Made by a program: the position numbers and the translations under genes. From the NCBI GenBank assembly GCA_026686805.1, contig GCA_026686805.1_3949.1: a stretch of DNA of 52,601 nucleotides. One strand, written 5' to 3'. Each line of letters begins with the position of its first letter. Position 1 is the first letter of the stretch. Origin of the DNA: a phage. The notes below the pieces were generated by a model. It made no database searches and was not told the DNA's origin. It worked only from the letters and a program-made list of their open reading frames with translations. This document shows positions 10,151-20,139 of the stretch, one piece after another.

Positions 10151-10392
10151 AGATAATCCTCTTGTCTTCTGTAATTTTGAAAGAACAGGTACAGACCAAT
10201 TTCAGAGGATGAATAGTAGATTGACTCTACCCTTTTTGATTCCTTACAGTGATTGGTATTCTTACCTTTCTTCGGTTTATTTGATTTTCTCATTAAGTCT
10301 CCTTTGTAGAACAAGGCAGACCTACAGCTTTAAGTAAGATGGTACAGTAATCCATACAACAAGTCAAGAACTATTGCAAGTTAAAAAAGTTG

Positions 10393-10416
10393 TTGACAAA
10401 GTACTTGACAAGGTGT
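10393..10416 (+). promoter_or_regulatory. conserved element gttgacaaWgtacttgacaaggtgt with tandem TTGACA boxes (copy 1)
   Basis: near-identical copy at 52541-52565; lies in divergent intergenic region upstream of the + strand gene at 10543. Confidence 0.35.
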
Positions 10417-10542
10417 AGGCTTATAAATACTTAGAAGATTACTTAAAAGGTTCCTCTAAAAAGGCTATTTAAACAGATATCTTTCTGGATATCTATCTTT
10501 TATCTTAAAAGCCTTTTAAGAGGTCTTATAAGAGGCATACCA

Positions 10543-10914
10543 ATGAAAAACAGAACAAACAAAGGCCAGTTTAAAAAAGGCCAATCTGGAAACCCATCTG
10601 GAAGACCAAAAGGCTCTCGCAACAAAAGCTCACTTGTAAAAGCTCAACTGACCATTGACAATTCTGCTGAGTTTGCTGCAAAGTTATTTGAAGCGATTGT
10701 TACAAGGGATGCTGCTAAGCTTGCAGAGTTCGGGTTAAACACAGATGACGTAACCATCAAGAGTATGATTGAGGTCGGTAAAACTATCTTTACTCACTCA
10801 GCAGGTGAGATGAAAGCACTTGCAGCAGACACTAAGAAGACTCCTGATAATGGTGGTCAACAACAGACAGATAACAAACCAACGTTCTCTGCTGTAGCGA
10901 CTCTTAAAAAATAA
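10543..10914 (+). CDS. hypothetical protein with basic N-terminal GNPSGRPKG (AT-hook-like) motif
   Basis: ORF with AAGAGG RBS; motif KGQSGNPSGRPKGSRNK suggests nucleic-acid binding (inference). Confidence 0.55.
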   Translation: MKNRTNKGQFKKGQSGNPSGRPKGSRNKSSLVKAQLTIDNSAEFAAKLFEAIVTRDAAKLAEFGLNTDDVTIKSMIEVGKTIFTHSAGEMKALAADTKKTPDNGGQQQTDNKPTFSAVATLKK

Positions 10915-10995: not shown

Positions 10996-12411
10996 ATGAG
11001 CGAATTATTTAAACATGCGCACCTTCATGCAGGTCGAACTGAAAATGGTGCTGTAAACCATACTTCATCAATGTCTGCTCTTGTAGACTTTTACAAAGCT
11101 GCTGGTTCAAGCCGTAGCAACGTAGAAATCTTACCAGACCTGTTCTACAAAGCTTTGCGTGAGGATGTTGATGTTGTAGTTCGTATTTTGCTTCATATGC
11201 GAGATGTACGAGAAGGTATGGGTGAGCGTAAAGCCTTCAGAACTGTTTTACTTCAAGCGATTGAAGACAAAGTTTTAGAGCCTACGCAGGTTCTTCGCAT
11301 TATGGATAAGATTGCAGAACTTGGTCGTTTTGATGACTTCAAAATCTTCGTAGGTACTCGTTTCGAGACAGATGCCTTCAAACATCTAGAAGCAGCATTA
11401 CTAGACCCTGCAACAGCAGGTTTGGCGGCTAAGTGGTTACCACGAGTCAAACCACGTCATAAGCAGTTTGTAAAACGTTTCTGCAAGTTTGCCAACTTGA
11501 GTGAGAAAGAGTACCGCACACTGTTGTCTGCACTATCTGATACAGTTGAGCAAAAAATCTCTGCTAATGAGTTTGGTAAGATTGACTACAGTAAGATTCC
11601 TTCACTTGCTGCTGCACGTTACCAAAAACTGTTTAACCGCAAAGATGGAGAACGCTACAAAGCTTACATCGAGTCCTTATCAAAGGGTGAGGCTAAGATT
11701 AATGCTGGTGCTGTTTACCCATACGATGTAATTAAATCTGTTAAGCATGGTAATGCAGATGTTGCTAATGAGCAGTGGAAAGCACTACCAAACTGGATGG
11801 CAGAGGGTGAAAACATCTTGTGTATGTCTGATGTTTCAAGCTCAATGTCTTGGGTGAATTTTGGTTCAATTACTGCTCTTGATATTGGTGTTTCACTTGC
11901 ATTGTATGTAGCAGAACGTAATACAGGTTGCTTTAAGAATGAGTTGATGGTTTATTCAACAAACCCTCACTTCATCGAACTGAGTGGTGATTTACGAAAC
12001 CGTCATCGTCAGGTGATGCGACACGTTGAATATGGCTCAACTAACTTACAAGCAGCTTTTGACCGTATTCTTGAAACAGGTAAAAGAAACAACTTGACTC
12101 AGAAAGATATGCCAAGTAAGCTTATCATCTTCTCCGATATGGAGTTCAATCAGGTTGATGGAGCTAACGGTCGTACAAACTTTGAAGCAATTCGTAGTAA
12201 GTACAAAAAAGCTGGATACGAAATGCCTCAACTGGTATTCTGGTACTTAGCAAACCGTAATGGTACTTGCGAAGTGTCTGTTAAGGATAACGGTGTAGCA
12301 ATGGTATCTGGTTTTTCTCCAGCTACTTTAAAAGCTCTGCTTGGTGGTGAGAAGTTTGACCCAATCAGTGTAATGCTCAAAGCAGTAATGATTGACCGTT
12401 ATATCTGGTAA
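10996..12411 (+). CDS. von Willebrand factor A (vWA) domain protein with MIDAS motif, N-terminal helical domain
   Basis: DxSxS MIDAS-like motif (MSDVSSSMS) followed by hydrophobic strand ...LIIFSDMEFNQ; 471 aa; RBS present. Confidence 0.55.
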   Translation: MSELFKHAHLHAGRTENGAVNHTSSMSALVDFYKAAGSSRSNVEILPDLFYKALREDVDVVVRILLHMRDVREGMGERKAFRTVLLQAIEDKVLEPTQVLRIMDKIAELGRFDDFKIFVGTRFETDAFKHLEAALLDPATAGLAAKWLPRVKPRHKQFVKRFCKFANLSEKEYRTLLSALSDTVEQKISANEFGKIDYSKIPSLAAARYQKLFNRKDGERYKAYIESLSKGEAKINAGAVYPYDVIKSVKHGNADVANEQWKALPNWMAEGENILCMSDVSSSMSWVNFGSITALDIGVSLALYVAERNTGCFKNELMVYSTNPHFIELSGDLRNRHRQVMRHVEYGSTNLQAAFDRILETGKRNNLTQKDMPSKLIIFSDMEFNQVDGANGRTNFEAIRSKYKKAGYEMPQLVFWYLANRNGTCEVSVKDNGVAMVSGFSPATLKALLGGEKFDPISVMLKAVMIDRYIW

Positions 12412-12420
12412 AAAGTTTTA

Positions 12421-12457
12421 AAAAGGGTATTGACAATGTGTTTGATACCCTTTAATA
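12421..12457 (+). promoter_or_regulatory. sigma70-like promoter TTGACA-17-TAATAT embedded in a perfect 9-bp inverted repeat, upstream of the tRNA array
   Basis: -35 ttgaca 12429-12434, 17-nt spacer, -10 taatat 12452-12457; inverted repeat aaagggtat(12421-12429)/atacccttt(12444-12452). Confidence 0.45.
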
Positions 12458-12576
12458 TGTTCTACATAGAAACGAAACGAGAGCTTTTCTAAGATACTGA
12501 AAAATATTTTAAAAAAGTTCTTGACAACCACTAAAAAATAATGTTAAAGTGGTTACATAGAGTTTGAAAAGTTTAT

Positions 12577-12653
12577 CTCTGTTTAGCTCAGCTTGGTAGA
12601 GCGTTCCGTTTGGGGCGGTAAGGCCGGAGGTTCAAGTCCTCCAACAGAGACCA
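12577..12653 (+). tRNA. tRNA-Pro (anticodon TGG)
   Basis: hand-folded cloverleaf: acceptor ctctgtt/aacagag, D-arm gctcagcttggtagagc, anticodon loop ttTGGgg, T-loop ttcaagt, CCA encoded. Confidence 0.65.
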
Positions 12654-12660
12654 AATTAAT

Positions 12661-12738
12661 GTTCCAGTAGACAAAATGGTAAAGTCACCACTCTTTCAAA
12701 GTGGATATCTGAGGGTTCAAATCCCTTCTGGAACGCCA
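12661..12738 (+). tRNA. tRNA-Glu (anticodon TTC)
   Basis: acceptor gttccag/ctggaac, anticodon stem ccact/agtgg, loop ctTTCaa, T-loop ttcaaat, CCA encoded. Confidence 0.75.
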
Positions 12739-12745
12739 GTTTTGA

Positions 12746-12817
12746 CAGAAGACCAATTACAGCAAACTTAATCTACTCATCTGACACGAAATCGGACAAA
12801 GAAGATATTTGGTCTGG
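12746..12817 (+). repeat. bipartite spacer element copy a (CAGAAGACC-nnWTWCAGCAA ... GGTCTGG)
   Basis: seen directly; 5' block 12746-12765, 3' block 12811-12817; agacc/ggtct can pair. Confidence 0.5.
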
Positions 12818-12828
12818 TCATTGAGAAT

Positions 12829-12905
12829 TGCGGGTATAGAGAAAGGGCGTCTCACATGTCTCATTAGCATGGTATCGGCAGGTTCGACTCCTGCACCCGC
12901 CTCCA
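12829..12905 (+). tRNA. tRNA with CAT anticodon (Met or Ile-lysidine type)
   Basis: anticodon stem catgt/gcatg, loop ctCATta, T-arm gcagg-ttcgact-cctgc, CCA encoded; acceptor has a mismatch at one end so boundaries +/-1. Confidence 0.6.
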
Positions 12906-12911
12906 ATTTTG

Positions 12912-12971
12912 CAGAAGACCGTATTCAGCAACAAAATACTTTTTGCGGATAAAAGAAAAAACACGGTCTGG
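12912..12971 (+). repeat. bipartite spacer element copy b
   Basis: gcagaagaccgtattcagcaa ... acacggtctgg. Confidence 0.5.
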
Positions 12972-12982
12972 CAATGTATTAA

Positions 12983-13059
12983 GGTTAGGAAGCACATAAG
13001 GTATGTGCGGTCGCCTGTTAAGCGAATGGCACAGGGTTCGAATCCCTGACTAACCGCCA
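12983..13059 (+). tRNA. tRNA-Asn (anticodon GTT)
   Basis: acceptor ggttagg/actaacc, D-stem gcac/gtgc, anticodon loop ctGTTaa, T-arm caggg-ttcgaat-ccctg, CCA encoded. Confidence 0.7.
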
Positions 13060-13067
13060 AATTAAAT

Positions 13068-13155
13068 GTGTCGTTATCCCGTAGATGGTAGCGGTGGGGA
13101 CTGTAAATCCCTTGTCATTGAGACTCGGTAGGTTCGACTCCTACACGGCACACCA
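13068..13155 (+). tRNA. tRNA-Tyr (anticodon GTA), long variable arm
   Basis: acceptor gtgtcgt/acggcac, anticodon stem gggga/tccct, loop ctGTAaa, long variable arm, T-arm gtagg-ttcgact-cctac, CCA. Confidence 0.7.
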
Positions 13156-13160
13156 ATAAA

Positions 13161-13237
13161 GGCTATGTAGTTTAACTGGAGAAAATACTCCCCTGTCACG
13201 GGAGATGATGTGAGTTCAAGTCTCATCGTAGCCGCCA
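13161..13237 (+). tRNA. tRNA-Asp (anticodon GTC)
   Basis: acceptor ggctatg/cgtagcc, anticodon stem ctccc/gggag, loop ctGTCac, T-loop ttcaagt, CCA. Confidence 0.75.
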
Positions 13238-13298
13238 ATTTTGAGAGGGCTATTTAGCCCCTCCCTTAAAGAGTTCTTACGAGTATTCTTTAAAGGAG

Positions 13299-13372
13299 CA
13301 GAAGACCAAATACAGCAAGAATGTATGAAATTTCAAGCCAATTTAATTTTGAAAATTTAAAACTTGGTCTGG
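13299..13372 (+). repeat. bipartite spacer element copy c
   Basis: agcagaagaccaaatacagcaa ... aacttggtctgg. Confidence 0.5.
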
Positions 13373-13385
13373 CTCAACAAATTTA

Positions 13386-13517
13386 CAGAAGACCGTTTAC
13401 AGCAAAACTTAAACAATCTATTTCTCCGGTAAAGAAAAGGCGAAGGTTCGATTCCTTCACTCGGCAGATGTCGAGTTGGTGTAATGGTAGCACTTAAGAT
13501 GATAAACAACGGTCTGG
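13386..13517 (+). repeat. bipartite spacer element copy d, enclosing a tRNA-like relic
   Basis: acagaagaccgtttacagcaa ... aacaacggtctgg; interior holds T-arm/acceptor-like and acceptor/D-arm-like segments. Confidence 0.5.
13442..13495 (+). other. tRNA-like relic in reversed half order (T-arm + 3' acceptor strand immediately followed by complementary 5' acceptor strand + D-arm)
   Basis: gaagg-ttcgatt-ccttc + actcggc then gtcgagt + ggtgtaatggtagcac; no complete cloverleaf can be drawn. Confidence 0.35.
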
Positions 13518-13666
13518 TAATTATCTTTGTAGATAAGTTATTAAGCTTACCTGTGAGTATGCGACCACAAAGGGTGAAAGGGTAAATTCTAGATTTAAAC
13601 CCAACAAGGCACATCGCTACAGACCTTAAGCAAGTCTGGGTAGCTTATCTACAAAGGTAATTTAAT

Positions 13667-13742
13667 GGAAGTGTAGCAGAATGGTGATGCGGCAGACTTT
13701 TAATCTGACAGGCGATGGGTTCGAATCCCTCCACTTCTACCA
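13667..13742 (+). tRNA. tRNA-Lys (anticodon TTT)
   Basis: acceptor ggaagtg/cacttct, anticodon loop ctTTTaa, T-loop ttcgaat, CCA; T-stem weak in my fold. Confidence 0.6.
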
Positions 13743-13746
13743 AAAT

Positions 13747-13823
13747 GGTTCAGTCGCAGATAAGGTAATGCAAGGGTCTCATAAGCCCTATGAATGTGGG
13801 TTCAATTCCCATCTGAACCTCCA
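13747..13823 (+). tRNA. tRNA with CAT anticodon (Met, initiator or Ile-lysidine type)
   Basis: acceptor ggttcag/ctgaacc, anticodon stem agggt/gccct, loop ctCATaa, T-loop ttcaatt, CCA. Confidence 0.7.
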
Positions 13824-13831
13824 ATTTATCG

Positions 13832-14326
13832 GTGATACTTATGATTTGTGCTAACAAAGATTGCGGAAATGAAGCCGTTAAAGGTGGAAAATTTTGCTCA
13901 CGCTCTTGTTCTGCAAAAGTGAACAACAAGAAACACCCAAAGAGAAGTCAGGAAGGCTCTTGCCATTCATGCGGAAAGGTAACGCCAAAAGCAAGAAAAT
14001 ACTGTGACGAATGTATTTCAGGTGGAGTCATGAAAAAACATAAGACCCATCATGAAAAAAGCAAAGCTAAATCACTGCACGTTAAAAAGTCTCGTGATAG
14101 ACTGAAGAAGGCTTTAGTTGATTACAAGGGTGGTTGTTGTTCAATTTGTGGTTACAATAGGTGCATAAAGGCTCTAGAGTTTCACCACTTAGACCCTAAC
14201 ACAAAAGACTTCACAGTAGGTCAAAAACACTACTCACTGGCTACAATGCAGTCTGAAGTTGATAAGTGTGTCTTGCTTTGTGCAAATTGCCATAGAGAAG
14301 TACACGAAGGGGTAACAATGCTGTGA
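13832..14326 (+). CDS. HNH homing endonuclease (Cys-rich N-terminus, C-terminal HNH motif)
   Basis: C-terminal ...CSICGYNRC...LEFHHLDPNTKDF...CVLLCANCHREVHEG = HNH signature; embedded in tRNA array; stop codon overlaps start of tRNA-Ile. Confidence 0.75.
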   Translation: MILMICANKDCGNEAVKGGKFCSRSCSAKVNNKKHPKRSQEGSCHSCGKVTPKARKYCDECISGGVMKKHKTHHEKSKAKSLHVKKSRDRLKKALVDYKGGCCSICGYNRCIKALEFHHLDPNTKDFTVGQKHYSLATMQSEVDKCVLLCANCHREVHEGVTML

Positions 14327-14395
14327 AAGCACATATGGATGTGCATTCGGCTGATAACCGAAAGGTAGAAGGTTCGAATCCTTCTCACAGTACCA
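14320..14395 (+). tRNA. tRNA-Ile (anticodon GAT)
   Basis: acceptor gctgtga/tcacagt, D-stem gcac/gtgc, anticodon stem ttcgg/ccgaa, loop ctGATaa, T-arm gaagg-ttcgaat-ccttc, CCA. Confidence 0.75.
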
Positions 14396-14410
14396 ATTTC
14401 AATAAAGTTG

Positions 14411-14439
14411 TTGACATTGAGATGCGACTACTTTATAGT
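14411..14439 (+). promoter_or_regulatory. sigma70-like promoter TTGACA-17-TATAGT inside the tRNA array
   Basis: -35 ttgaca 14411-14416, 17-nt spacer, -10 tatagt 14434-14439. Confidence 0.5.
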
Positions 14440-14445
14440 AACCTT

Positions 14446-14610
14446 AGTTTTCGTTGCGTAGCGTCTATTTTGCAAATTTAAAATAAATGCAAACGACAAT
14501 GTTTTTCTGGCAGTAGCTTGATAGGCTAAACACCAGTGAGGTCTTCCAATCCCTCATCAAAGAATTTGGCGTACTAGCCCACGGTATGATTAATAAGGTG
14601 GGCATCTTTA
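14446..14610 (+). ncRNA. candidate small structured RNA downstream of promoter (no coding potential, no tRNA fold)
   Basis: hairpins tttgca/tgcaaa and gcccac(14577-14582)/gtgggc(14598-14603) followed by atcttt; purely structural inference. Confidence 0.2.
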
Positions 14611-14643
14611 AGGGCTTTCTAAGAGAGTCTTTAAAGATAATTA

Positions 14644-14725
14644 CGGGGCGTATCTCAGCGGTCTTCTAAACCGCCGTTAACCGAGTAAGTGGAGTATGCG
14701 GGTTCGAGTCCTGCCGCCTCGACCA
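14644..14725 (+). tRNA. atypical tRNA-like gene, possible tRNA-Arg (anticodon TCT); D-arm not placeable, 23-nt region between anticodon and T arms
   Basis: acceptor cggggcg/cgcctcg, perfect anticodon arm gcggt-ctTCTaa-accgc, T-arm gcggg-ttcgagt-cctgc, CCA; geometry non-canonical. Confidence 0.35.
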
Positions 14726-14868
14726 ATTTAGTTAGCAGATTACTTAGACGACCTTATCGGGTCTCCGTGTAAGGAGGTGGTCTGTATCTCATGTTTTCCA
14801 GAACATGTAAATAATCTGAGAAGGGGCTTTACAGTGTTGAGATAATACGGTAAGCTTCGAATTATAGT

Positions 14869-14951
14869 ATGGGACGATGTTAAGACTCTAAGGCATGAGC
14901 AACGGCTTCCAACACCGTTTCAAAGGGGTTCAACTCCTCCGTCCCATGCCA
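14869..14951 (+). tRNA. atypical tRNA-like gene, possible tRNA-Trp (anticodon CCA); 7 extra nt between acceptor and D-arm
   Basis: acceptor atgggac/gtcccat (7/7), anticodon arm acggc-ttCCAac-accgt, T-loop ttcaact, CCA. Confidence 0.35.
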
Positions 14952-14964
14952 AAGTCTTATTAGG

Positions 14965-15052
14965 GGTAGGTAGCGGCTAATGGTAGCCAAACTGTCTTGA
15001 AAACAGTTGCCACTGTAGAGATACGGTGAGGGTTCGACTCCTTTACTTACCG
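14965..15052 (+). tRNA. tRNA-Ser (anticodon TGA), long variable arm
   Basis: acceptor ggtaggt/acttacc, perfect anticodon stem actgt/acagt, loop ctTGAaa, 20-nt variable arm, T-arm gaggg-ttcgact-ccttt; CCA not encoded. Confidence 0.7.
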
Positions 15053-15310
15053 CCTAATAAGATTTTAAAGCCAAGCTTCATTCGGATGTTGCTTTGGTAT
15101 CCCTCGTGTATTGTCGTACACACTGATAAAACACCTAGTAGGTGTCACGGAGAAGAGATAATATCAAGCTCTCCAAAGGTTCTAGTCACCGGATTAAACA
15201 AGACTATGCAAAGACCTTTTTAGGTCTTTTTAGAGGGCTTCTAAGGTTATTACGGCTTGTTGTGGAACCTTGTTGCTTAGGTTCTTAGAAGTTCTCTAAA
15301 AAGATTTAAT

Positions 15311-15388
15311 GGGAGATTGACGGTAATTGGTAAACCTATCTCGCTTAGAACGAGATGTTTGAGGGTTCGAATCCCTTGTCTCCTACCA
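15311..15388 (+). tRNA. tRNA with TAG anticodon (Leu by anticodon), short variable loop
   Basis: acceptor gggagat/gtctcct, perfect anticodon stem tctcg/cgaga, loop ctTAGaa, T-loop ttcgaat, CCA; class I architecture unusual for Leu. Confidence 0.55.
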
Positions 15389-15395
15389 AATTAAT

Positions 15396-15471
15396 GCAGG
15401 TGTAGCAAAATGGTTATGCGGCTGACTCTTAATCAGTAAGACGATGGGTTCAATTCCCTCCACCTGTACCA
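15396..15471 (+). tRNA. tRNA-Lys (anticodon CTT)
   Basis: acceptor gcaggtg/cacctgt, anticodon stem gctga/tcagt, loop ctCTTaa, T-loop ttcaatt, CCA. Confidence 0.65.
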
Positions 15472-15476
15472 AAAAT

Positions 15477-15552
15477 GGGGTCATAGTTTATATGGTTAAA
15501 ATTCGAGTTTTGCAAACTTGGGAACTGAGTTCAATTCTCAGTGACTCCACCA
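15477..15552 (+). tRNA. tRNA-Ala (anticodon TGC)
   Basis: acceptor ggggtca/tgactcc, anticodon stem cgagt/acttg, loop ttTGCaa, T-loop ttcaatt, CCA. Confidence 0.65.
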
Positions 15553-15558
15553 ATTAGT

Positions 15559-15633
15559 GCATCCATAGTTTAAACGGGAAAATTACAGTCTTCCAAACTG
15601 AGGTTGAGGGTTCGATTCCCTCTGGATGCTCCA
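15559..15633 (+). tRNA. tRNA-Gly (anticodon TCC)
   Basis: acceptor gcatcca/tggatgc, anticodon loop ctTCCaa, T-arm gaggg-ttcgatt-ccctc, CCA. Confidence 0.7.
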
Positions 15634-15640
15634 AATTAAT

Positions 15641-15716
15641 GCTCCTATCGTATAATTGGCTATTACGGTTGCCTTGTAAGCAACTTATCAGGGTTCGAAT
15701 CCTTGTGGGAGCACCA
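15641..15716 (+). tRNA. tRNA-Thr (anticodon TGT)
   Basis: acceptor gctccta/tgggagc, perfect anticodon stem gttgc/gcaac, loop ctTGTaa, T-loop ttcgaat, CCA. Confidence 0.75.
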
Positions 15717-15718
15717 AT

Positions 15719-15811
15719 TCAGAGGTCAAGTGAAAGACCGCTGGTGTCAACTGAAGACCGTAACAAATTCCACGGAGTTGAGTTAGCGGCACAACTTCAG
15801 ACCTCTTTCAC
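15719..15811 (+). other. structured spacer element (inverted repeat agaggtc ... gacctct, internal gaagaccgtaacaaattc block)
   Basis: seen directly; related to the CAGAAGACC-containing spacer elements; function unknown. Confidence 0.3.
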
Positions 15812-15886
15812 ACTCGCTTAGTTTATATGGTAAAACATCACCCTTACAAGATGAAGAAAAAGGTTCAAGTCCTTTAGTGAGTACCA
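15812..15886 (+). tRNA. tRNA-Val (anticodon TAC)
   Basis: acceptor actcgct/agtgagt, anticodon stem tcacc/gatga (one mismatch), loop ctTACaa, T-arm aaagg-ttcaagt-ccttt, CCA. Confidence 0.65.
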
Positions 15887-15887
15887 T

Positions 15888-15965
15888 GTTCCAGTATCCC
15901 AATTGGCAGAGGATGCAAGCTCAAACCTTGTATTAGTGACGGTTCGAATCCGTCTTGGAACACCA
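15888..15965 (+). tRNA. tRNA with CAA anticodon (Leu by anticodon), short variable loop
   Basis: acceptor gttccag/ttggaac, anticodon stem gcaag/cttgt, loop ctCAAac, T-arm gacgg-ttcgaat-ccgtc, CCA. Confidence 0.55.
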
Positions 15966-15981
15966 ATTTTAGGAGAACACT

Positions 15982-16089
15982 ATGAGCAATAAGTCAATTG
16001 CAAAAAAGTTTAGAGCGTCATACCTAAACAGACGTAAAAACAAAGTTTGTGAAAAACTGTATGGTGTTCTCGTAGGTAAGCAGGATTAG
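15982..16089 (+). CDS. possible small ORF (35 aa, basic) overlapping the 5' end of tRNA-Arg
   Basis: AGGAG RBS 6 nt upstream of ATG; below the track's 60-aa cutoff; overlap with tRNA makes it doubtful. Confidence 0.2.
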   Translation: MSNKSIAKKFRASYLNRRKNKVCEKLYGVLVGKQD

Positions 16090-16155
16090 TTCAAATGGAT
16101 AGAGCAACAGTCTACGAAGCTGTTAATAGGGGTTCGAATCCCTTATCCTGCACCA
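16080..16155 (+). tRNA. tRNA-Arg (anticodon ACG)
   Basis: acceptor gcaggat/atcctgc, D-arm gttcaaatggatagagc, anticodon stem acagt/gctgt, loop ctACGaa, T-loop ttcgaat, CCA. Confidence 0.75.
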
Positions 16156-16174
16156 ATTTAAAGAGGCTATTTAG

Positions 16175-16732
16175 ATGAGATATTTGAAGTATGCTTCATG
16201 GATTTTCTTAGCTTTGTTAGAGCCATTTGCAGCAATCTTAGCAGTTATCTTAGCACCTTTTGTAGTTCCATTCTACAGTGAGAAGAAAGGACACTTACCT
16301 TTCGGGTTCAGATGGATGGAGACATATGACAACCCAATTGATGGTGATGAAGGTCACGTTAAAAGATGGGCTAATATCAGATGGATTGGTAAACTAGGTG
16401 TCTACATGCAAAGAGTCGGATGGCTCTGGAGAAACAAAGCTTATAACTTCTCTTACCATGTATTAGGAAGAGATGTAAAAGATGTTACTAAGTGGAAAGG
16501 TAATATCAACGTAAGTTCTGACCCTGAAGATAATCAGACAGGTTATCTACTAATGTGGAACAGTAATGCTTGGGGATTATTCGCTTTTATCCCATCAATT
16601 AAAATCTTTGGTAAACAATTTTACTGGAGAATTTATATTGGATGGAAACTAAAAAGTGTTGTCCCAGAAGAAAGAGCATTCTCAAGGGAAAGAGTTATGT
16701 TGGCATTCTTTATTCATCCACTGAGAAAGTAA
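16175..16732 (+). CDS. hypothetical protein with hydrophobic N-terminus (185 aa), embedded in tRNA array
   Basis: ORF from track; N-terminal hydrophobic segment WIFLALLEPFAAILAVILAPFVVPF. Confidence 0.5.
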   Translation: MRYLKYASWIFLALLEPFAAILAVILAPFVVPFYSEKKGHLPFGFRWMETYDNPIDGDEGHVKRWANIRWIGKLGVYMQRVGWLWRNKAYNFSYHVLGRDVKDVTKWKGNINVSSDPEDNQTGYLLMWNSNAWGLFAFIPSIKIFGKQFYWRIYIGWKLKSVVPEERAFSRERVMLAFFIHPLRK

Positions 16733-16740
16733 AGATTTAA

Positions 16741-16816
16741 AGGGGATTAGTTTACAAGGTTAAAACCTCGGTCTTTGAAATCGAAGAAGTTGGTTCAATT
16801 CCAACATCCCCCGCCA
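16741..16816 (+). tRNA. tRNA-Gln (anticodon TTG)
   Basis: acceptor aggggat/atccccc (1-72 mismatch), anticodon stem tcggt/atcga, loop ctTTGaa, T-arm gttgg-ttcaatt-ccaac, CCA. Confidence 0.65.
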
Positions 16817-16818
16817 AT

Positions 16819-16897
16819 GCTCCATTACTCCAATTGGCAGAGAGGCCAGACTTAAAATCTGTGTTATGTATCGGTTCGAATCCGATATGGAGTACCA
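16819..16897 (+). tRNA. tRNA with TAA anticodon (Leu by anticodon), short variable loop
   Basis: acceptor gctccat/atggagt, anticodon stem caga/tctg, loop ctTAAaa, T-arm atcgg-ttcgaat-ccgat, CCA. Confidence 0.5.
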
Positions 16898-16902
16898 AAT
16901 TT

Positions 16903-16978
16903 AGCGGCATAGCATAACTGGCAATGCAGCAGTCTCTGAAGCTGTCTTATTAAGGTTCAAATCCTTATGCCGCTGCCA
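16903..16978 (+). tRNA. tRNA-Gln (anticodon CTG)
   Basis: acceptor agcggca/tgccgct, D-stem gcat/atgc, anticodon loop ctCTGaa (stem with two G-U pairs), T-arm taagg-ttcaaat-cctta, CCA. Confidence 0.55.
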
Positions 16979-17009
16979 CTTCTAAGGATTCTTACGAGAG
17001 TCCTTAAAT

Positions 17010-17085
17010 GTGGCCTTATCATAAACGGTAATGACCCATGCTGTGAACATGGTCTATACGGGTTCAAATCCCGTAGGTCACCCCA
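17010..17085 (+). tRNA. tRNA-His (anticodon GTG)
   Basis: acceptor gtggcct/aggtcac, perfect anticodon stem ccatg/catgg, loop ctGTGaa, T-arm acggg-ttcaaat-cccgt, CCA. Confidence 0.7.
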
Positions 17086-17091
17086 ATTTAT

Positions 17092-17167
17092 AGTCCAAGT
17101 AGCTTATATGGTTAAAGCGCGTGTCTGAAAAACATGAGAAGAGTGTTCAAATCCCACTGGACTACCA
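17092..17167 (+). tRNA. tRNA-Phe (anticodon GAA)
   Basis: acceptor (t)agtcca/tggact(a), anticodon stem cgtgt/acatg, loop ctGAAaa, T-loop ttcaaat; 5' boundary +/-1. Confidence 0.6.
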
Positions 17168-17183
17168 ATTTCAAAGGTGCTTA

Positions 17184-17918
17184 ATGAAAGAGATGACAGA
17201 ACAAGGTAAGGAGATTTTCAATCTCTTAAAAACCGGTAAAGGGTTTTCTAACCCCCTTATTACTGGTGCAGCAGTTCTCGGTGGAACCGTAGCTGCCTCT
17301 ACATCACTTGTAAGCTCTATTAGCTCTGTATCAGACCCTACAGTAAAGGATAAGCTTGTTGCTGCTGGACTTACAACAGTTCTGCTTAACAGCTTTACCA
17401 CGAGTCTGACAAGCACTACATCAACTACCAAAACACTAACAGATTACGGTCAAAAATCCATTGATGAGTTTTCATCACGTATGCAGGTAGCAAAAGGTTA
17501 TTCTAATGTTATGGGTGCAGCAGGTGAACAAGTTGGCTGTACACCATTTAGTGGTATTATGGGTGTTGCTACAGAGTATGGTCAAAAAGCTATTGATACG
17601 ATTAACAGTGCACTAGATAGTGTTAATGGTGTGTTAAGTGACTTACAAGATGCTATTGACAAAGGTCTTGATACTATTTCTGATTTAGCTGAGCAAGCTG
17701 TTAGTAAGATTAATGAAGGTATTTCAAAAATTACAGCTTATGCAGATGAAGTTGTGCAGATGATTGAAGAAGAAGCTGCTCTTATTGCAGAGTACCTTAA
17801 AACGAATATCAATGGGTTCTTAGCAGGTATCTTACCAGACTGGTTTGATGATGCTTGTAAAACTGGTGTAATTGACACTATTGCAACACCAGAAATGAAG
17901 AACGCATTACAGAAATAA
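17184..17918 (+). CDS. hypothetical Ser/Thr-rich protein (244 aa), embedded in tRNA array
   Basis: track ORF 17121..17918 overlaps tRNA-Phe; ATG at 17184 has RBS aaaggtg and clears the tRNA. Confidence 0.5.
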   Translation: MKEMTEQGKEIFNLLKTGKGFSNPLITGAAVLGGTVAASTSLVSSISSVSDPTVKDKLVAAGLTTVLLNSFTTSLTSTTSTTKTLTDYGQKSIDEFSSRMQVAKGYSNVMGAAGEQVGCTPFSGIMGVATEYGQKAIDTINSALDSVNGVLSDLQDAIDKGLDTISDLAEQAVSKINEGISKITAYADEVVQMIEEEAALIAEYLKTNINGFLAGILPDWFDDACKTGVIDTIATPEMKNALQK

Positions 17919-17920
17919 AT

Positions 17921-18013
17921 GGAAGATTAACCCTAAAAGGTAAGGGAGCAGTTTGCTAAACTGCCAGTAGCTGAGAAATCGGTGTACCAGTTCAAGTCTG
18001 GTATCTTCCTCCA
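17921..18013 (+). tRNA. tRNA-Ser (anticodon GCT), long variable arm
   Basis: acceptor ggaagat/atcttcc, perfect anticodon stem gcagt/actgc, loop ttGCTaa, ~21-nt variable arm, T-arm accag-ttcaagt-ctggt, CCA. Confidence 0.75.
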
Positions 18014-18017
18014 ATTT

Positions 18018-18093
18018 GAATCCGTGACAGAAATGGCTATGTGCCTGTCTGCAAAACAGGTTTATAAGGGTTCGAGTCCCTTCGGATTCTCCA
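18018..18093 (+). tRNA. tRNA-Cys (anticodon GCA)
   Basis: acceptor gaatccg/cggattc, perfect anticodon stem cctgt/acagg, loop ctGCAaa, T-arm aaggg-ttcgagt-ccctt, CCA. Confidence 0.75.
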
Positions 18094-18255
18094 ATTTATT
18101 TTACTCTCTCTCAATTAAAATAATAATAATGCCCTGCTATAAGTATTCTTCCTTTCGCTACCGAAGAGTATTTTTAGACAGGGCTTTTTTACAGAGTTAT
18201 ACTTTATAAGAAGCCTTATACAGTATGTCTCTGACGTACATTGTGGTTTCTCCTT

Positions 18256-18279
18256 GACGGTCTCTGTACCGTCTTTTTT
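18256..18279 (+). terminator. intrinsic terminator after tRNA array
   Basis: hairpin gacggt-ctctgt-accgtc followed by T6; a second, looser hairpin (gccctg ... cagggc + T6, 18131-18190) lies upstream. Confidence 0.5.
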
Positions 18280-18315
18280 AAGGGGAAACATGATTAACTA
18301 TTTGGAGAAAACATA

Positions 18316-18516
18316 ATGAGCGAGACCGTTTATAAAGAACTTTATGAAGCTAATAAGAAGCTAGAATTTATGCAGAATACTATCATGGCAATTGCAGACA
18401 GATTGTCTGTAGCAACAGGTATTGATATTAAAGAAGCATCTATGGATGCACTTCTTGATGCTGTTGATGCAAAGTTCGAAGTTAAGAAAGAAGAGACTGC
18501 TACAGACTCTGAATAA
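18316..18516 (+). CDS. hypothetical protein (66 aa) immediately upstream of large terminase
   Basis: ORF with GGAG RBS; position is compatible with a small terminase subunit but there is no sequence evidence. Confidence 0.4.
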   Translation: MSETVYKELYEANKKLEFMQNTIMAIADRLSVATGIDIKEASMDALLDAVDAKFEVKKEETATDSE

Positions 18517-18537
18517 TTCTATTTGCGGAGGTGCTTA

Positions 18538-20139
18538 ATGGACTTAAATGCTGTTAAGCAGAAGCGAGTGGAAGATGTTAGGAAAGTCCTAGCTGGAGAG
18601 TTGGGGCTTTCTGATGAAGTAAAAGAAATTATCAAATCATTCGGTAAAGACCCCTCTAAATTCCTTCCAACTCAAATTCTGACTTTATTAAGATACACAC
18701 CAGACCAAGTTAGACTTATCTTCAAATTGATGACTGATAAGAATTATGTAGCCCCTCAGCCGGGTTCTCAAGAGGTCTTTTTAAATACTAATGCTGACTT
18801 GGTTCTCTATGGTGGTGCTGCTGGTGCTGGTAAAACTGCTGCATTGTTAATGGATTCTTTAAGGTTTATTGAAGACCCTAACTATAATGCTGTATATTTC
18901 CGTCGAAATACAACACAGCTACAAGGTGGTTTATGGCCTGCTGCAAAGAAACTATTTGGTAAGTTTGGTGGGGTTCCTCACGAGCAGAAGATGACTATCA
19001 CATTCCCTTCTGGGGCAACTATCAAGTTTACCTATCTAGAACTTGAAAAGCACGCTGAAGGTCATCAGGGTATTGAATACTCAGCTATTTACTTTGACGA
19101 AGGTACACACTTCTCTGCTTCACAGATTTCATACCTACAAACACGTCTGCGTTCTGGTGCTGAAGGTGATTCATACATGAAGATTTCCATGAACCCAGAC
19201 AGAGACCACTTTATTTATGATTGGGTAGAACCATTCTTAGATGAAGAAGGTTATCCAGACCCTGAAAAGTGTGGTCGTATTCGTTGGTATGTAATGAATG
19301 ACGGTGTGATGGTTTCTGATTGGGAGAGAGACAAGATTCTTGAAATGTTCCCTCTTGAGATTCCTCAAACATACACCTTTATCTCTGGTACGATTGATGA
19401 TAACCCAATCCTTGACTTCTTAGAGCCTAAGTACCGTGGTAAGTTGGAAAACAACACCCCTGTAAACGTTGCAAGACTTCGTTTCGGTAACTGGAAGGCT
19501 CGTGCAGAAGGTTCAAACTATTGGCAAAGACAATGGTGTGAAATTGTTGATTCACTCCCAGAAGATGTATTCGATGTTAGAGCATGGGACTTAGCAGCAA
19601 CTTTACCATCTGAGATTAACCCTAATCCAGACTGGACAGCAGGTGTTAAGATGGGTAAATCTAAAAAAGACGGTTGCTATTATATCATTGATGTAGTAAG
19701 ATTTAGAGATAGACCCTCTGGAGTCGAAACACAAATTAATTTGACTGCTGAAAGTGACGGTAAGCGAACTGGTATTTTTATCCCTCAAGACCCAGGCGCT
19801 GCTGGTAAATCCTACGCGACATCCCTCATCAGGAAACTTGCCGAGAAAGGCTATCGTGCAAGAGCTAAACCAACAAATAAAGATAAAGTTACCCGCTTTG
19901 CGGGATTTTCTGCTGCTTCTGAAGCTGGACTTGTAAAAGTCTTAAGAGGTAGTTGGAATGAAGCTTACTTTCAAGAGCTTGAAGGCTTTTGTGGTGATGG
20001 CAAAACTAAAGATGACCAAGTGGATGCTACCAGTGATGCTTTCAACAGTCTTAACGAAGTTAAATTATTCAAGCCACCATCAATGGGTGCTCACACAGAC
20101 TTAGTGAGAGGAAACCCATATGAGGGGCTTAGACGTTGA
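18538..20139 (+). CDS. terL: terminase large subunit
   Basis: Walker A P-loop LYGGAAGAGKTAALL near N-terminus; ~530 aa; directly upstream of portal-sized gene; start moved to ATG 18538 (GGAGG RBS) from track ATG 18523. Confidence 0.8.
   Translation: MDLNAVKQKRVEDVRKVLAGELGLSDEVKEIIKSFGKDPSKFLPTQILTLLRYTPDQVRLIFKLMTDKNYVAPQPGSQEVFLNTNADLVLYGGAAGAGKTAALLMDSLRFIEDPNYNAVYFRRNTTQLQGGLWPAAKKLFGKFGGVPHEQKMTITFPSGATIKFTYLELEKHAEGHQGIEYSAIYFDEGTHFSASQISYLQTRLRSGAEGDSYMKISMNPDRDHFIYDWVEPFLDEEGYPDPEKCGRIRWYVMNDGVMVSDWERDKILEMFPLEIPQTYTFISGTIDDNPILDFLEPKYRGKLENNTPVNVARLRFGNWKARAEGSNYWQRQWCEIVDSLPEDVFDVRAWDLAATLPSEINPNPDWTAGVKMGKSKKDGCYYIIDVVRFRDRPSGVETQINLTAESDGKRTGIFIPQDPGAAGKSYATSLIRKLAEKGYRARAKPTNKDKVTRFAGFSAASEAGLVKVLRGSWNEAYFQELEGFCGDGKTKDDQVDATSDAFNSLNEVKLFKPPSMGAHTDLVRGNPYEGLRR

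Follow-up and report, generated by a model that had tools for sequence, protein, structure and literature searches.

Two protein genes in the tRNA array of a Felix O1-like phage belong to the DUF7338 and DUF7217 families

Results

Organization of the locus

The window analyzed here (the whole stretch of DNA, 52,601 nucleotides) is assigned from its sequence to Felixounavirus, the Felix O1-like phages, and the region shows 96-98% nucleotide identity to Felixounavirus genomes. ARAGORN detected 25 tRNAs across positions 12577-18093, on the + strand only, and 2 protein genes, hereafter ORF-A and ORF-B, are embedded in this array (Table 1). An earlier reading of the letters alone (the sequence-only reading) had described them as genes for a hydrophobic protein of 185 amino acids and a Ser/Thr-rich protein of 244 amino acids, with tRNAs on each side; the arrangement was confirmed by the ORF listing and ARAGORN, and the composition of both products agrees with the description (peak hydropathy of 2.38 and 20% Ser+Thr, respectively). 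A DUF5681 gene is located 5' of the tRNA array, and the endolysin gene lies at 7569-8033, 8 kb away from ORF-A and on the opposite strand.

Table 1. Features of the tRNA array and its surroundings (positions in the window)
Feature	Position	Strand	Evidence and remarks
Two sigma-70-like promoters, perfect TTGACA	12430-12458, 12521-12550	+	Just 5' of the first tRNA
Sigma-70-like promoter within the array	14411-14439	+	TTGACA, 17 nt, TATAGT; 11/12 positions
tRNA-Arg(acg)	16080-16155	+	ARAGORN; left neighbor of ORF-A
Spacer ATTTAAAG and ORF-A RBS AAGAGG (16161-16166)	16156-16174	+	Read from sequence
ORF-A, 185 aa, DUF7338 / phrog_2143, Felix O1 ORF48 ortholog	16175-16732	+	ATG start
Spacer with ATTTAAA, repeat of the spacer left of the ORF-A cassette	16733-16740	+	
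tRNA-Gln(ttg)	16741-16816	+	ARAGORN; right neighbor of ORF-A
Five inter-ORF tRNAs: Gln(ttg), Leu(taa), Gln(ctg), His(gtg), Phe(gaa)	16741-17167	+	ARAGORN
tRNA-Phe(gaa)	17092-17167	+	ARAGORN; left neighbor of ORF-B
ORF-B RBS AAGGTG	17174-17179	+	Read from sequence
ORF-B, 244 aa, DUF7217 / phrog_2114, Felix O1 ORF49 ortholog	17184-17918	+	
tRNA-Ser(gct)	17921-18013	+	ARAGORN; right neighbor of ORF-B
tRNA-Ser(gct) and tRNA-Cys(gca), final tRNAs of the array	17921-18093	+	ARAGORN
Intrinsic-terminator hairpin GCCCUG...CAGGGC, then U6; strong	18131-18190	+	RNA fold
Second terminator-like hairpin and T6	18256-18279	+	Directly 5' of the small ORF/terminase
Small 66-aa ORF, phrog_4397	18316-18516	+	Between ORF-B and terminase
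Terminase large subunit	18538-20139	+	Pfam Terminase_6N and Terminase_6C

The sigma-70-like promoters are consensus matches only, and their total number is not above that in shuffled sequence. At the other end of the array, folding of the RNA of 18094-18300 gave -64.3 kcal/mol (z = -7.55); the strong hairpin in this segment closes the tRNA/ORF-A/ORF-B unit, and ORF-B, which is part of the tRNA operon, is separated by this terminator from the terminase gene. The Felix O1 orthologs of the 2 genes, ORF48 and ORF49, were assigned to the 5-min class by RT-PCR (PMC3185647).

The ORF listing gives ORF-B as 17121-17918 (+) with a GTG start and 265 amino acids, and with an internal ATG at 17184 that yields 244 amino acids. 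Because the GTG extension overlaps tRNA-Phe, we take 17184 as the true start. ORF-B is annotated with 244 amino acids in Felix O1, VpaE1, and Moogle, and the context of its RBS, AGGTGCTTAATG, is identical to that at the terminase ATG (18538). Both ORFs are intact genes under purifying selection, with dN/dS values of 0.04-0.07 for ORF-A and 0.10-0.25 for ORF-B.

ORF-A is a DUF7338 protein with a predicted membrane helix

No obvious homology had been seen for either gene in the sequence-only reading. This did not hold, since both products are full-length members of Pfam families, DUF7338 and DUF7217, respectively; both families are uncharacterized, and literature searches for the 2 names retrieved no papers. 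ORF-A scored 208 bits against DUF7338 (PF24027; gathering cut-off 27), with residues 1-184 aligned to model positions 1-176 of 180, and matched phrog_2143 in PHROGs (E = 6e-80; function label unknown). Its ortholog is Felix O1 ORF48 (NP_944875, "phage conserved protein"), which also lies between tRNA-Arg and tRNA-Gln, and its length and motifs are the same as in hundreds of phage proteins. The conserved motifs are LAPFVVPF, T-x-D-N, WLWRNxAY, and GWKLK, and invariant polar residues are found in the soluble domain. The peak 19-residue Kyte-Doolittle hydropathy is that of the window from residue 9 (9-27). The protein has 11 Trp and a pI of 9.85, and the tail after the helix (pI 9.9) has 11 Trp and no Cys. 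In the AlphaFold model (pLDDT 94.9, pTM 0.85) a helix spanning residues 2-33 is followed by an alpha/beta domain. The predicted layout of ORF-A is a transmembrane helix at the N terminus, covering about residues 7-34, with the conserved alpha/beta domain behind it. Membrane insertion and topology are predictions, and the strongly conserved helix together with the pTM of 0.85 could also mean that the helix packs into the fold.

Searches outside the family returned noise. The ORF-A profile against PDB sequences gave the JEV M protein at E = 0.65, the PDB fold search gave no match at E <= 0.001 (best E = 0.58, TM-score <=0.14), and the BFVD fold search recovered the protein's own family only, some members of which are mislabeled "envelope protein". 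This label and that of "holin" are untested guesses for DUF7338. A GIY-YIG-like reading of the "GVY...AYN" stretch was discarded, as the model shows helices and no nuclease fold was matched. By eye, V-P-L-D followed by about 10 hydrophobic residues and A-P in ORF-A is like the TolR/ExbD transmembrane helix with its essential Asp, and in both proteins the N-terminal helix is followed by an alpha/beta domain. Homology was rejected (hhalign probability 0.1%, no match to Pfam ExbD, PF02472, and no significant PDB fold), and the likeness is limited to this one helix.

In a published CRISPRi knockdown screen, agp134, the ORF-A ortholog of phage SUSP1, was classified as Semi-Fit (1.24, p = 0.087; 3 guides); a screen of the same type placed T4 imm in the Fit class and T4 t among the Semi-Fit genes (PMC11879866). 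The agp134 phenotype is weak, and because the guides bind beside tRNA-Arg it could reflect a polar effect on the processing of the tRNA transcript.

ORF-A is an accessory gene shared between phage lineages

Both genes had been proposed to be accessory genes of the tRNA island. This is borne out for ORF-A, whose slot is empty in Moogle and other Felix O1-like phages, but not for ORF-B, which is a conserved gene (see below). In Moogle, 7 nt separate tRNA-Arg from tRNA-Gln(ttg), leaving no gene in the junction, and ORF-A is absent from the syntenic slot also in Erwinia phage Panisse and in the divergent Felix O1-like contigs checked (L104 and L105). Outside this group, ORF-A shows 55-63% amino-acid identity to copies in T4-like phages and 78% to that of phage Av-05. 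The phage L056 carries an 83%-identical nucleotide copy between nrdD and nrdG, and the limits of homology are exactly the ORF-A RBS and the stop codon; in its relative Mangalyan, an HNH endonuclease is annotated in the stretch matching the L056 copy. Altogether, ORF-A is an accessory cassette that is shared horizontally.

A same-strand tRNA was found within 12-1100 nt at 46 of the 47 IMG/VR loci with >=55% identity to ORF-A. Members of the family are located within the tRNA arrays of the Pseudomonas phages phiPsa267 (Otagovirus) and KoPa-4, of Av-05, and of several T4-like phages, and copies in or beside tRNA clusters occur in at least 4 myovirus lineages. Distant DUF7338 members (29-42% identity) are mostly located away from tRNAs, and the linkage may stem from few transfer events followed by descent. 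Co-transfer of the flanking tRNAs was rejected: in blastn comparisons, homology to T4-like and other loci ends at the ORF, and the scattered tRNA-to-tRNA matches are not adjacent to ORF-A copies. Phages with near-identical tRNA arrays exist that do not carry ORF-A.

ORF-B is a core gene whose homologs are found in virions

ORF-B scored 297.6 bits against DUF7217 (PF23854; gathering cut-off 29), with residues 8-243 aligned to model positions 2-238 of 238, and matched phrog_2114 (E = 2e-111; function label unknown). Its Felix O1 ortholog is ORF49 (NP_944879). The protein (25.6 kDa, pI 4.43) has 2 near-invariant cysteines, C119 and C225, and is all-alpha in the AlphaFold model (pLDDT 95.5). Its profile matched PDB sequences at noise level only, the hits being coiled-coil proteins or designed bundles of helices; the best matches in the PDB fold search were generic helical bundles (E >= 0.26). 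Two further matches were set aside. The ZorA match (PADLOC, NCBIfam) is a compositional one to a coiled-coil tail, with about 15 bits against cut-offs of 100-500. The phrog_289 "GTP-binding domain" match (E = 3e-17) apparently represents the same family under a transferred label; this label is given to DUF7217 homologs in some Klebsiella phage records, in phage allotria the "GTP-binding domain" gene is a separate gene (155 aa) 2 genes 5' of the DUF7217 homolog, and no GTPase motif was seen in the ORF-B family alignment.

Gene order was compared across Felixounavirus, Suspvirus, Mooglevirus, Kolesnikvirus, and 2 divergent metagenomic phages. The order DUF5681, tRNAs, DUF7217, small ORF, TerL, and Portal_Mu is kept across these Felix O1-like phages, with the phrog_4397 ORF always between ORF-B and terminase. 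ORF-B is located 5' of the small ORF, terminase, and portal genes in all Felix O1-like phages examined, even in those with no tRNA 3' of it. ORF-B is thus a core gene that heads the packaging/morphogenesis block and not a passenger of the tRNA island.

Homologs of ORF-B have been recovered from virions of Ackermannviridae. LIMEstone1 ORF129, a full-length homolog (E = 3e-28), was reported as a "confirmed structural protein" (25.03 kDa, 18% coverage, 2 peptides), with a predicted late promoter of the T4 type (PMC3296691). Sajous1 gp166, also homologous (E = 2e-29), yielded 8 spectra from virions purified with CsCl, as many as the tail completion protein; the Sajous1 authors warn that low spectral counts can be contaminants (PMC10892097). 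The Sajous1 "ferritin" trio gp215-217 was considered and discarded, since these are different genes and gp166 is the true homolog. LIMEstone1 ORF129 and Sajous1 gp166 share with ORF-B its length, 27% full-length identity, and conserved N-P, Cys, Cys, and Glu positions. In Ackermannviridae the DUF7217 gene lies beside a gp3-like tail-completion gene, with a predicted late promoter and no tRNAs nearby, whereas ORF-B lies in a tRNA operon 5' of the terminase gene.

Felix O1 itself gave no clean detection of the protein in virions, and a literature search for Felixounavirus proteomes brought up nothing of relevance. The product of ORF49 is not in the shotgun list of 17 Felix O1 virion proteins (PMC3185647), and the "Gp49" band of that phage was discarded as structural proof: it runs at 51 kDa, against 25.6 kDa for the ORF49 product, and is discussed as sheath. 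It looks like a numbering error, unless it is a dimer of the ORF49 product; the obvious owner of the band is gp63 (48.9 kDa). Genes of structural proteins are not usually transcribed early, as ORF-B apparently is along with the tRNAs; ORF49 transcription was maximal at 5 min, in a class that also holds capsid genes (PMC3185647). In SUSP1, knockdown of the ORF-B ortholog agp133 was scored Not Fit (-0.12) (PMC11879866).

Discussion

We lean toward a joint explanation in which ORF-A and ORF-B are unrelated genes that happen to share one transcription unit with the tRNAs, ORF-A being an accessory protein that acts on the envelope and ORF-B a conserved virion protein. ORF-B would mark the start of the packaging/morphogenesis block, around which the tRNAs would have accreted; its product, acidic, probably elongated and all-helical, would most likely be a low-copy virion component, as are its Ackermannviridae homologs, and dispensable or nearly so under laboratory conditions. 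ORF-A would be a membrane protein anchored by its single N-terminal helix and exposing a conserved, basic, Trp-rich alpha/beta domain, most likely made early and inserted in the inner membrane to act on the envelope of the infected cell. This would place it in the functional class of T4 Imm, Sp, or RI, that is, in superinfection exclusion or lysis-timing control. The likeness to these proteins and to the T holin is one of functional analogy only: each of them is small, with a membrane segment at its N terminus and the rest globular, as predicted for ORF-A, and no sequence or fold similarity of ORF-A to Imm, Sp, RI, or T was detected. The T4-like phages among the carriers of ORF-A also have imm, sp, rI, and t genes of their own. 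A bolder version of this proposal, in which DUF7338 represents a new class of phage inner-membrane effectors, a single-gene cassette that spreads between unrelated virulent myoviruses by landing in tRNA arrays and at hot spots of homing endonucleases and takes part in lysis or envelope control of Felix O1-like phages, strikes us as unlikely. If true, the effector could have a holin-like or lysis-timing role or could interfere with a host membrane complex through its conserved acidic transmembrane helix.

A rival for ORF-A is that it serves Felix O1-like phages as their missing holin or as another membrane protein of lysis timing, which would build up in the inner membrane and give the soluble endolysin access to the cell wall. 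Neither Felix O1 nor SUSP1 has a known holin, and the supplement of the CRISPRi paper calls Ounavirus lysis "a mystery" (PMC11879866). The small size of ORF-A (185 aa) and its one strong N-terminal transmembrane segment, followed by a C-terminal domain of ~150 amino acids, would fit. The T4 T holin has the same layout, with an N-terminal transmembrane segment and a C-terminal domain. In addition, the SUSP1 ortholog falls in the same Semi-Fit class as T4 t, the orthologs in the Mushroom, UPEC07, and HP1 records are labeled "holin", and in Aeromonas phage phiAS5 the ORF-A homolog ends one base 5' of the start of the lysozyme gene, an abutment seen in phiAS5 only. However, Moogle, Panisse, and the divergent Felix O1-like phages must lyse their hosts with no ORF-A in the syntenic slot, and T4-like phages, whose genomes include a t holin gene, carry ORF-A as well. 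ORF-A lies in an apparently early, sigma-70-type tRNA operon far from the endolysin gene and on the other strand; it is thus neither present in all close relatives nor linked to late expression or to the endolysin. No holin family was matched at E <= 1 in Pfam, NCBIfam, or PHROG, the PDB fold search gave nothing below its threshold, the invariant polar residues of the soluble domain are unusual for holins, and gp48 is not among the holin candidates of the Felix O1 authors. Taken together, we regard a holin function as quite unlikely. We consider it very unlikely that ORF-A is tied functionally to the tRNAs, by processing, modifying, repairing, or protecting them. Its genes lie within tRNA clusters or next to them in Ounavirinae, Otagovirus-like phages, Avunavirus, and several Straboviridae genera, and the distance to a tRNA on the same strand is often no more than 12-70 nt. 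However, an RNA enzyme would not be expected to combine a strongly hydrophobic helix at the N terminus with a basic domain rich in Trp, and no RNA-related family or fold was matched in Pfam, PDB, or BFVD. Moreover, the flanking tRNA species vary by lineage (Arg/Gln, Gln/Trp, Phe, Met, Gly), the distant relatives and the copy between nrdD and nrdG are located away from tRNAs, and near-identical tRNA arrays do without ORF-A.

For ORF-B, it seems extremely improbable that the protein is an unrecognized small terminase or another packaging factor. Such a role would fit its all-helical model and its constant place immediately 5' of the small ORF, itself followed by TerL, in every Felix O1-like phage examined, and the Felix O1 paper found no TerS. 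Nevertheless, in the SUSP1 screen the ortholog scored Not Fit, against Semi-Fit for TerL and Fit for the portal gene, and the terminase operon is set apart from ORF-B by a strong terminator. Ackermannviridae have a separately annotated second terminase gene beside the large one, which the Sajous1 proteome table lists as the small subunit (PMC10892097), while their DUF7217 gene lies elsewhere, next to the tail-completion gene, and its product is present in virions. The DUF5681 gene 5' of the array, whose SUSP1 ortholog is among the top Fit genes, could be a candidate instead. We give equally little credence to ORF-B being an integral protein of the membrane, although the GenBank records of Pinkbiff, mistaenkt, and GEC_vB_BS label it "(putative) membrane protein". 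The hydropathy of residues 25-43 reaches 1.62, which is borderline; this segment is rich in Ala, Gly, Ser, and Thr, and in the model it forms one of the helices of a bundle predicted with confidence. In addition, ORF-B is acidic (pI 4.4), and homologs of it were recovered from purified virions. The sequence-only reading had raised a third possibility, that one or both ORFs are anti-defense or host-takeover factors carried in the tRNA island. Nothing was found in support of this, PADLOC and NCBIfam having given no significant matches, and we consider it unlikely. ORF-A is accessory and horizontally mobile, its homolog in Klebsiella phage Roth26 lies 2 genes from an annotated anti-CBASS acb2, and the CRISPRi authors speculate that genes located among the tRNAs of Ounavirus could be adaptations to host defenses (PMC11879866). 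For ORF-B, the variant would be a protein packaged in the virion and injected with the DNA, like the internal proteins of T4, its homologs being low-abundance virion proteins and its SUSP1 ortholog dispensable. The T4 internal proteins are likewise virion-borne and non-essential. However, aligned N-termini of the ORF-B family showed by eye no obvious T4-type capsid-targeting or cleavage motif, and ORF-B is a core gene of conserved position and not a variable island gene. The mild phenotype of the ORF-A ortholog in NEB10beta, the host of the CRISPRi screen, which we take to be poor in defense systems, suggests a general rather than a defense-specific role. Neither ORF matched a characterized anti-defense family in Pfam, NCBIfam, PHROGs, PDB, or BFVD, and no similarity in sequence or fold to any characterized protein was found for either. 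That reading had itself held that homology to ordinary functions would speak against it, and ORF-B comes near to this with homologs that are virion components.

Both genes are already catalogued and probably do not constitute a new anti-defense system. The practical value of the analysis is better annotation: the public labels "265-aa membrane protein" and "holin" are unsupported, and ORF-B is better described as a gene conserved in Felix O1-like phages, with a probably virion-associated product, than as cargo of a tRNA island. Two leads only are worth following, the link between DUF7338 and tRNA arrays and the identity of the Felix O1 holin. Felix O1-like phages are widely used in diagnostics and biocontrol of Salmonella and E. 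coli, yet have no identified holin, for which ORF-A is a cheap but unlikely candidate.

DUF7338, having landed repeatedly in tRNA clusters of at least 4 myovirus lineages, is a good marker with which to study the exchange of cargo between the tRNA arrays of phages. The mobile unit would be a discrete cassette of RBS and ORF that moves between unrelated virulent myoviruses of Gram-negative hosts, and tRNA clusters may receive it because they are strongly transcribed and prone to recombination and also house homing endonuclease genes, rather than because the protein acts on tRNA. Like ORF-A, T4 segB and the Felix O1 HNH endonuclease gene ORF47 are protein genes lodged in tRNA clusters; unlike them, ORF-A has no nuclease motif or fold match, and it more likely hitchhikes on recombination at these insertion sites than drives it. 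An HNH endonuclease-like ORF is also present in the same tRNA array of the window.

ORF-A and ORF-B lie inside the tRNA array and belong to known families

The sequence-only reading had described two protein genes with tRNAs on either side, one encoding a hydrophobic and the other a Ser/Thr-rich protein, and both descriptions held up. Their placement was borne out by an ORF list (14.5-19.5 kb) and by ARAGORN, which predicts 25 tRNA genes, all on the + strand. ORF-A is flanked by tRNA-Arg(acg) 19 nt upstream and tRNA-Gln(ttg) 8 nt downstream, and ORF-B by tRNA-Phe 16 nt upstream and tRNA-Ser(gct) 2 nt downstream. The longest version of ORF-B (265 aa) starts at a GTG and overlaps tRNA-Phe; the internal ATG at 17184, which is preceded by a Shine-Dalgarno sequence of its own (AAGGTG), gives the 244-aa protein and is the start annotated for Felix O1, VpaE1, and Moogle (Table). 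The ORF-A protein (22.0 kDa, pI 9.85) has 11 Trp residues, lacks Cys, and is very hydrophobic in a single segment near its N-terminus, and the ORF-B protein (25.6 kDa, pI 4.43) is 20% Ser+Thr. The dN/dS ratio was 0.04-0.07 for ORF-A and 0.10-0.25 for ORF-B, and both genes are under strong purifying selection.

The earlier statement that neither protein has obvious homology did not stand, as both are full-length members of curated families: ORF-A of Pfam DUF7338 (208 bits, cut-off 27) and phrog_2143, and ORF-B of DUF7217 (297.6 bits, cut-off 29) and phrog_2114. Over 2.7 kb, the sequence shares 96-98% identity with more than 200 Felixounavirus genomes from Escherichia and Salmonella phages and 95.9% with Felix O1, in which the orthologs are ORF48 ("phage conserved protein") and ORF49. 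Near-identical versions of the two genes are present in hundreds of genome records, and curated DUF families cover both. A literature search on DUF7338 and DUF7217 returned no paper naming either family, and searches of both proteins with NCBIfam and PADLOC gave nothing meaningful.

Table. Positions of the features discussed in the text
Feature	Position	Strand	Remarks
Endolysin	7569-8033	-	Phage_lysozyme
294-aa protein	8033-8917	-	two or three Ig-like domains; directly after endolysin, same strand
DUF5681 protein	10543-10914	+	123 aa
DUF2828 + DUF7788 protein	10996-12411	+	471 aa; phrog_850 "RNA-binding protein"; directly upstream of tRNA array
Sigma-70-like promoters	12430, 12521, 14411		perfect -35 hexamer; leads only
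tRNA array	12577-18093	+	25 tRNA genes
HNH homing endonuclease-like ORF	13832-14326	+	164 aa; phrog_2255, E = 4e-37; inside tRNA array
tRNA 3' ends with CCA-ATTT(A), examples	15963-15969, 16153-16159, 17083-17089, 17165-17171, 18011-18017, 18091-18097
ORF-A	16175-16732	+	185 aa; ATG start
ORF-B, GTG start	17121-17918	+	265 aa
ORF-B, ATG start	17184-17918	+	244 aa
First hairpin	18131-18190	+	strong, followed by U6; directly after tRNA-Cys
Second hairpin	18256-18279	+	terminator-like
Terminase large subunit	18538-20139		downstream of ORF-A and ORF-B

Among the predicted genes are a second tRNA-Met and tRNA-Ser genes with the anticodons tga and gct; in the tRNA table for Felix O1 there are 22, with those for Tyr and His marked as pseudo-tRNAs (PMC3185647). 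Most of the tRNA genes (12577-18100) encode the terminal CCA, with ATTT(A) after it, and the ATTTAAA after the tRNAs may be a processing signal or provide microhomology for array rearrangements. The HNH-like ORF, which has no Pfam match, is located between tRNA-Met (13747-13823) and tRNA-Ile (14320-14395), and its last codons overlap the start of the latter.

ORF-A is a mobile single-gene cassette

ORF-A is a mobile accessory cassette that encodes a predicted membrane protein and has a notable habit of residing in tRNA arrays, and this placement is the most interesting pattern that we found. That it is a self-contained, horizontally moving single-gene cassette follows from its empty junctions, its spread across phages, and the sharp limits of similarity in one distant copy. 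In Moogle, a Citrobacter phage of the Ounavirinae, the same Arg(acg) and Gln(ttg) tRNAs are only 7 nt apart with no intervening gene, and the gene is also absent from the syntenic slot of the Erwinia phage Panisse (Kolesnikvirus) and of two divergent metagenomic phages of the Felix O1-like type. ATTTAAA(G), the ordinary inter-tRNA spacer of the array, stands on both sides of the cassette in the window. Many T4-like phages (Dhakavirus, Gaprivervirus, Gelderlandvirus, Pseudotevenvirus, and Klebsiella phages among them) encode proteins 55-63% identical to ORF-A; the copy of phage Av-05 is 78% identical, and phages of Pseudomonas (Otagovirus), Aeromonas, Vibrio, and Rhizobium carry more distant copies. 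A 121-kb contig distantly related to Phapecoctavirus-type phages (IMG/VR 3300045988_157310) carries a copy with 83% nucleotide identity between nrdD and nrdG (9917-10554 of locus L056), and this similarity extends from the RBS to the stop codon only. In this copy a 1-nt deletion/frameshift splits the gene into ORFs of 101 and 120 aa, so that the copy either was transferred recently and is now decaying or was misassembled.

ORF-A homologs accompany tRNA genes in many phages

The gene lies inside tRNA arrays in Felixounavirus and Suspvirus, within arrays of 18-24 tRNAs in several T4-like phages, and in Av-05 with 5 tRNAs upstream and 9 downstream. In the Pseudomonas phages phiPsa267 (Otagovirus) and KoPa-4 the homolog is found approximately 20 nt after tRNA-Gln and before tRNA-Trp, and in other T4-like genera 0.2-1.1 kb downstream of a small tRNA cluster. 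In an IMG/VR scan, 46 of the 47 loci at least 55% identical to ORF-A had a tRNA on the same strand at a distance of 12-1100 nt. At 29-42% identity, most relatives lack a tRNA within 10 kb; jumbo phages, Vibrio and Rhizobium phages, and phiAS5 carry such tRNA-free relatives. The tRNA species beside the homologs vary by lineage, and no nucleotide homology of the ORF-A loci into their flanks was detected. We infer that tRNA arrays, as well-transcribed and recombination-prone regions, would collect cassettes of this kind; homing endonuclease genes are also found in the arrays of the window (the HNH-like ORF), Felix O1, and KoPa-4. In the T4-like Klebsiella phage Roth26, an annotated anti-CBASS gene, acb2 (4246-4527 of locus L014), is located two genes upstream of the DUF7338 gene and downstream of tRNAs, a placement indicating that the DUF7338 neighborhood gathers accessory and counter-defense genes.

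ORF-A is a candidate envelope-acting membrane protein

An alignment of 32 homologs showed a hydrophobic N-terminal helix that bears a conserved acidic residue (E15) and an LAPFVVPF motif, a T-x-D-N-x-x-x-G loop, and the elements WLWRNxAY and GWKLK. The AlphaFold2 model is very confident (pLDDT 94.9, pTM 0.85) and combines a five-stranded sheet with a helix at residues 2-33 and several short ones. Foldseek found no relative in the PDB (best E = 0.58) and only members of its own family in BFVD, and the ORF-A profile matched nothing among PDB sequences. Inspection by eye suggested a likeness between the helix motif and the transmembrane helix of TolR and ExbD, which bears an Asp; homology was rejected, with a profile-profile probability of 0.1% against the E. 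coli proteins.

Among the roles considered, we rank first that of a putative early inner-membrane protein acting on the envelope, of the exclusion or lysis-timing class. Some records label the protein a holin, and a recognized holin is missing in Felix O1-like phages; however, no holin family was matched, the operon is apparently early, and the gene is absent in close relatives and present in T4-like phages, which encode their own holin, so that we regard this assignment as improbable. The sole lysis-gene linkage seen for DUF7338 is in the Aeromonas phage phiAS5 (locus L010, 4989-6014), where the gene ends at 5516 and a T4 e-type lysozyme gene starts at 5517. A tRNA-related function, which the placement of the gene might bring to mind, is more improbable still: a functional tie to tRNA is unlikely because the protein is predicted to be membrane-anchored and is Trp-rich. 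In a dCas13d knockdown screen of phage SUSP1, the ORF-A ortholog agp134 was classified as "Semi-Fit" (1.24, p = 0.087, 3 guides; PMC11879866 supplement), and in a like screen of T4 the holin gene t was Semi-Fit and imm Fit (PMC11879866). Because the guides bind beside tRNA-Arg, the agp134 score may reflect a polar effect on the tRNA transcript. In the window, the Ig-like protein encoded next to the endolysin is orthologous to Felix O1 gp36 ("tail protein") and is encoded far from other structural genes.

ORF-B is fixed in position and probably virion-associated

Among 1.8 billion representative proteins, an exhaustive search with HMMER retrieved only 23 relatives, all of 170-270 aa, and ORF-B therefore represents a stand-alone family. 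Few positions are invariant in the alignment (N23-P24, C119, G133, I194, E197, and C225). The protein is confidently modeled as an all-alpha elongated bundle (pLDDT 95.5), for which sequence-profile and fold searches of the PDB gave no specific match. Weak matches to tape-measure PHROGs were dismissed as compositional. The label "membrane protein" derives from a borderline Ala/Gly/Ser/Thr-rich segment (hydropathy 1.62) that is inside the bundle in the model.

The order ORF-B, small ORF of 60-75 aa, large terminase, and Mu-type portal is kept in Felixounavirus, Suspvirus, Mooglevirus, Kolesnikvirus, and two metagenomic phages in which ORF-B is just 33-40% identical. Because this order is constant while the number of tRNAs after ORF-B is zero (Panisse and the metagenomic phage L104), one (the metagenomic phage L105), or two (Felixounavirus and Moogle), ORF-B is fixed in position and the surrounding tRNAs are variable. 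The earlier interpretation of both genes as accessory, with candidate host-interaction or anti-defense functions, was half right: the genes are real and placed as described, and accessory status holds for ORF-A, with its empty slots, but the conserved order makes ORF-B a position-fixed core gene and not island cargo, and no evidence supporting anti-defense was found for either gene. ORF-B (17176-17186) and the large terminase gene (18530-18540) share an identical translation-start context, GGTGCTTAATG.

Full-length ORF-B homologs were found by tblastn in approximately 330 Ackermannviridae genomes, and two of these homologs, from LIMEstone1 and Sajous1, have been detected in virion proteomes. 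In these phages the gene adjoins a gp3-like tail-completion gene and a lipoprotein gene. LIMEstone1 ORF129 (27% identity, E = 3e-28) was detected among virion proteins by ESI-MS/MS (25.03 kDa, 18% coverage, 2 unique peptides); it carries the annotation "confirmed structural protein", and a late promoter is predicted ahead of its gene (PMC3296691). Sajous1 gp166 (E = 2e-29) gave 8 spectra in CsCl-purified virions, as many as the tail-completion protein and more than a prohead core protein (PMC10892097). In Felix O1, "Gp49" was reported as structural from a major band of 51 kDa, tentatively the sheath (PMC3185647, section 2.7, Table 4A), whereas the predicted ORF49 product has 244 aa and 25.6 kDa. 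The shotgun list of the same study contains gp63 (48.9 kDa) and not gp49 (PMC3185647), and "Gp49" is probably a numbering slip that was carried into the structural-protein list of the abstract; the mass of gp63 fits the 51-kDa band. Altogether, ORF-B is a conserved gene of Felix O1-like phages, with a product that is probably virion-associated, and tRNAs have accumulated around it.

Knockdown of agp133, the ortholog in SUSP1, was classed as "Not Fit" (-0.12, 3 guides; PMC11879866), which argues against an essential role such as that of the small terminase and is compatible with an accessory virion component. The small terminase of Felix O1-like phages could be the DUF5681 protein, so far unrecognized as such; the order DUF5681, tRNAs, DUF7217, small ORF, and TerL is retained in distant relatives.

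Transcription context of the array

The sigma-70-like sites are leads only because the total of promoter-like matches was not above that of shuffled sequence. Two hairpins lie between the array and the small ORF with the terminase gene, and the fold of 18094-18300 (z = -7.55) has a very stable first hairpin. This first hairpin is absent from the terminator table of the Felix O1 paper (PMC3185647), and a sigma-70-like site (18175-18203) overlaps its T-tract. The tRNAs, ORF-A, and ORF-B may thus form a single unit read by the host polymerase, which would fit poorly with a purely late structural role of ORF-B. By RT-PCR, Felix O1 ORFs 45, 46, 48, and 49 were assigned to the 5-min class and ORFs 51 and 53 to the 60-min class (PMC3185647); this timing is weak evidence because capsid genes are also listed as early there. 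Upstream of the array, the DUF2828/DUF7788 protein is a possible RNA-related partner of the tRNAs. SUSP1, whose copy of this gene (agp131) was Not Fit, and divergent Felix O1-like contigs likewise have the gene followed by tRNAs.
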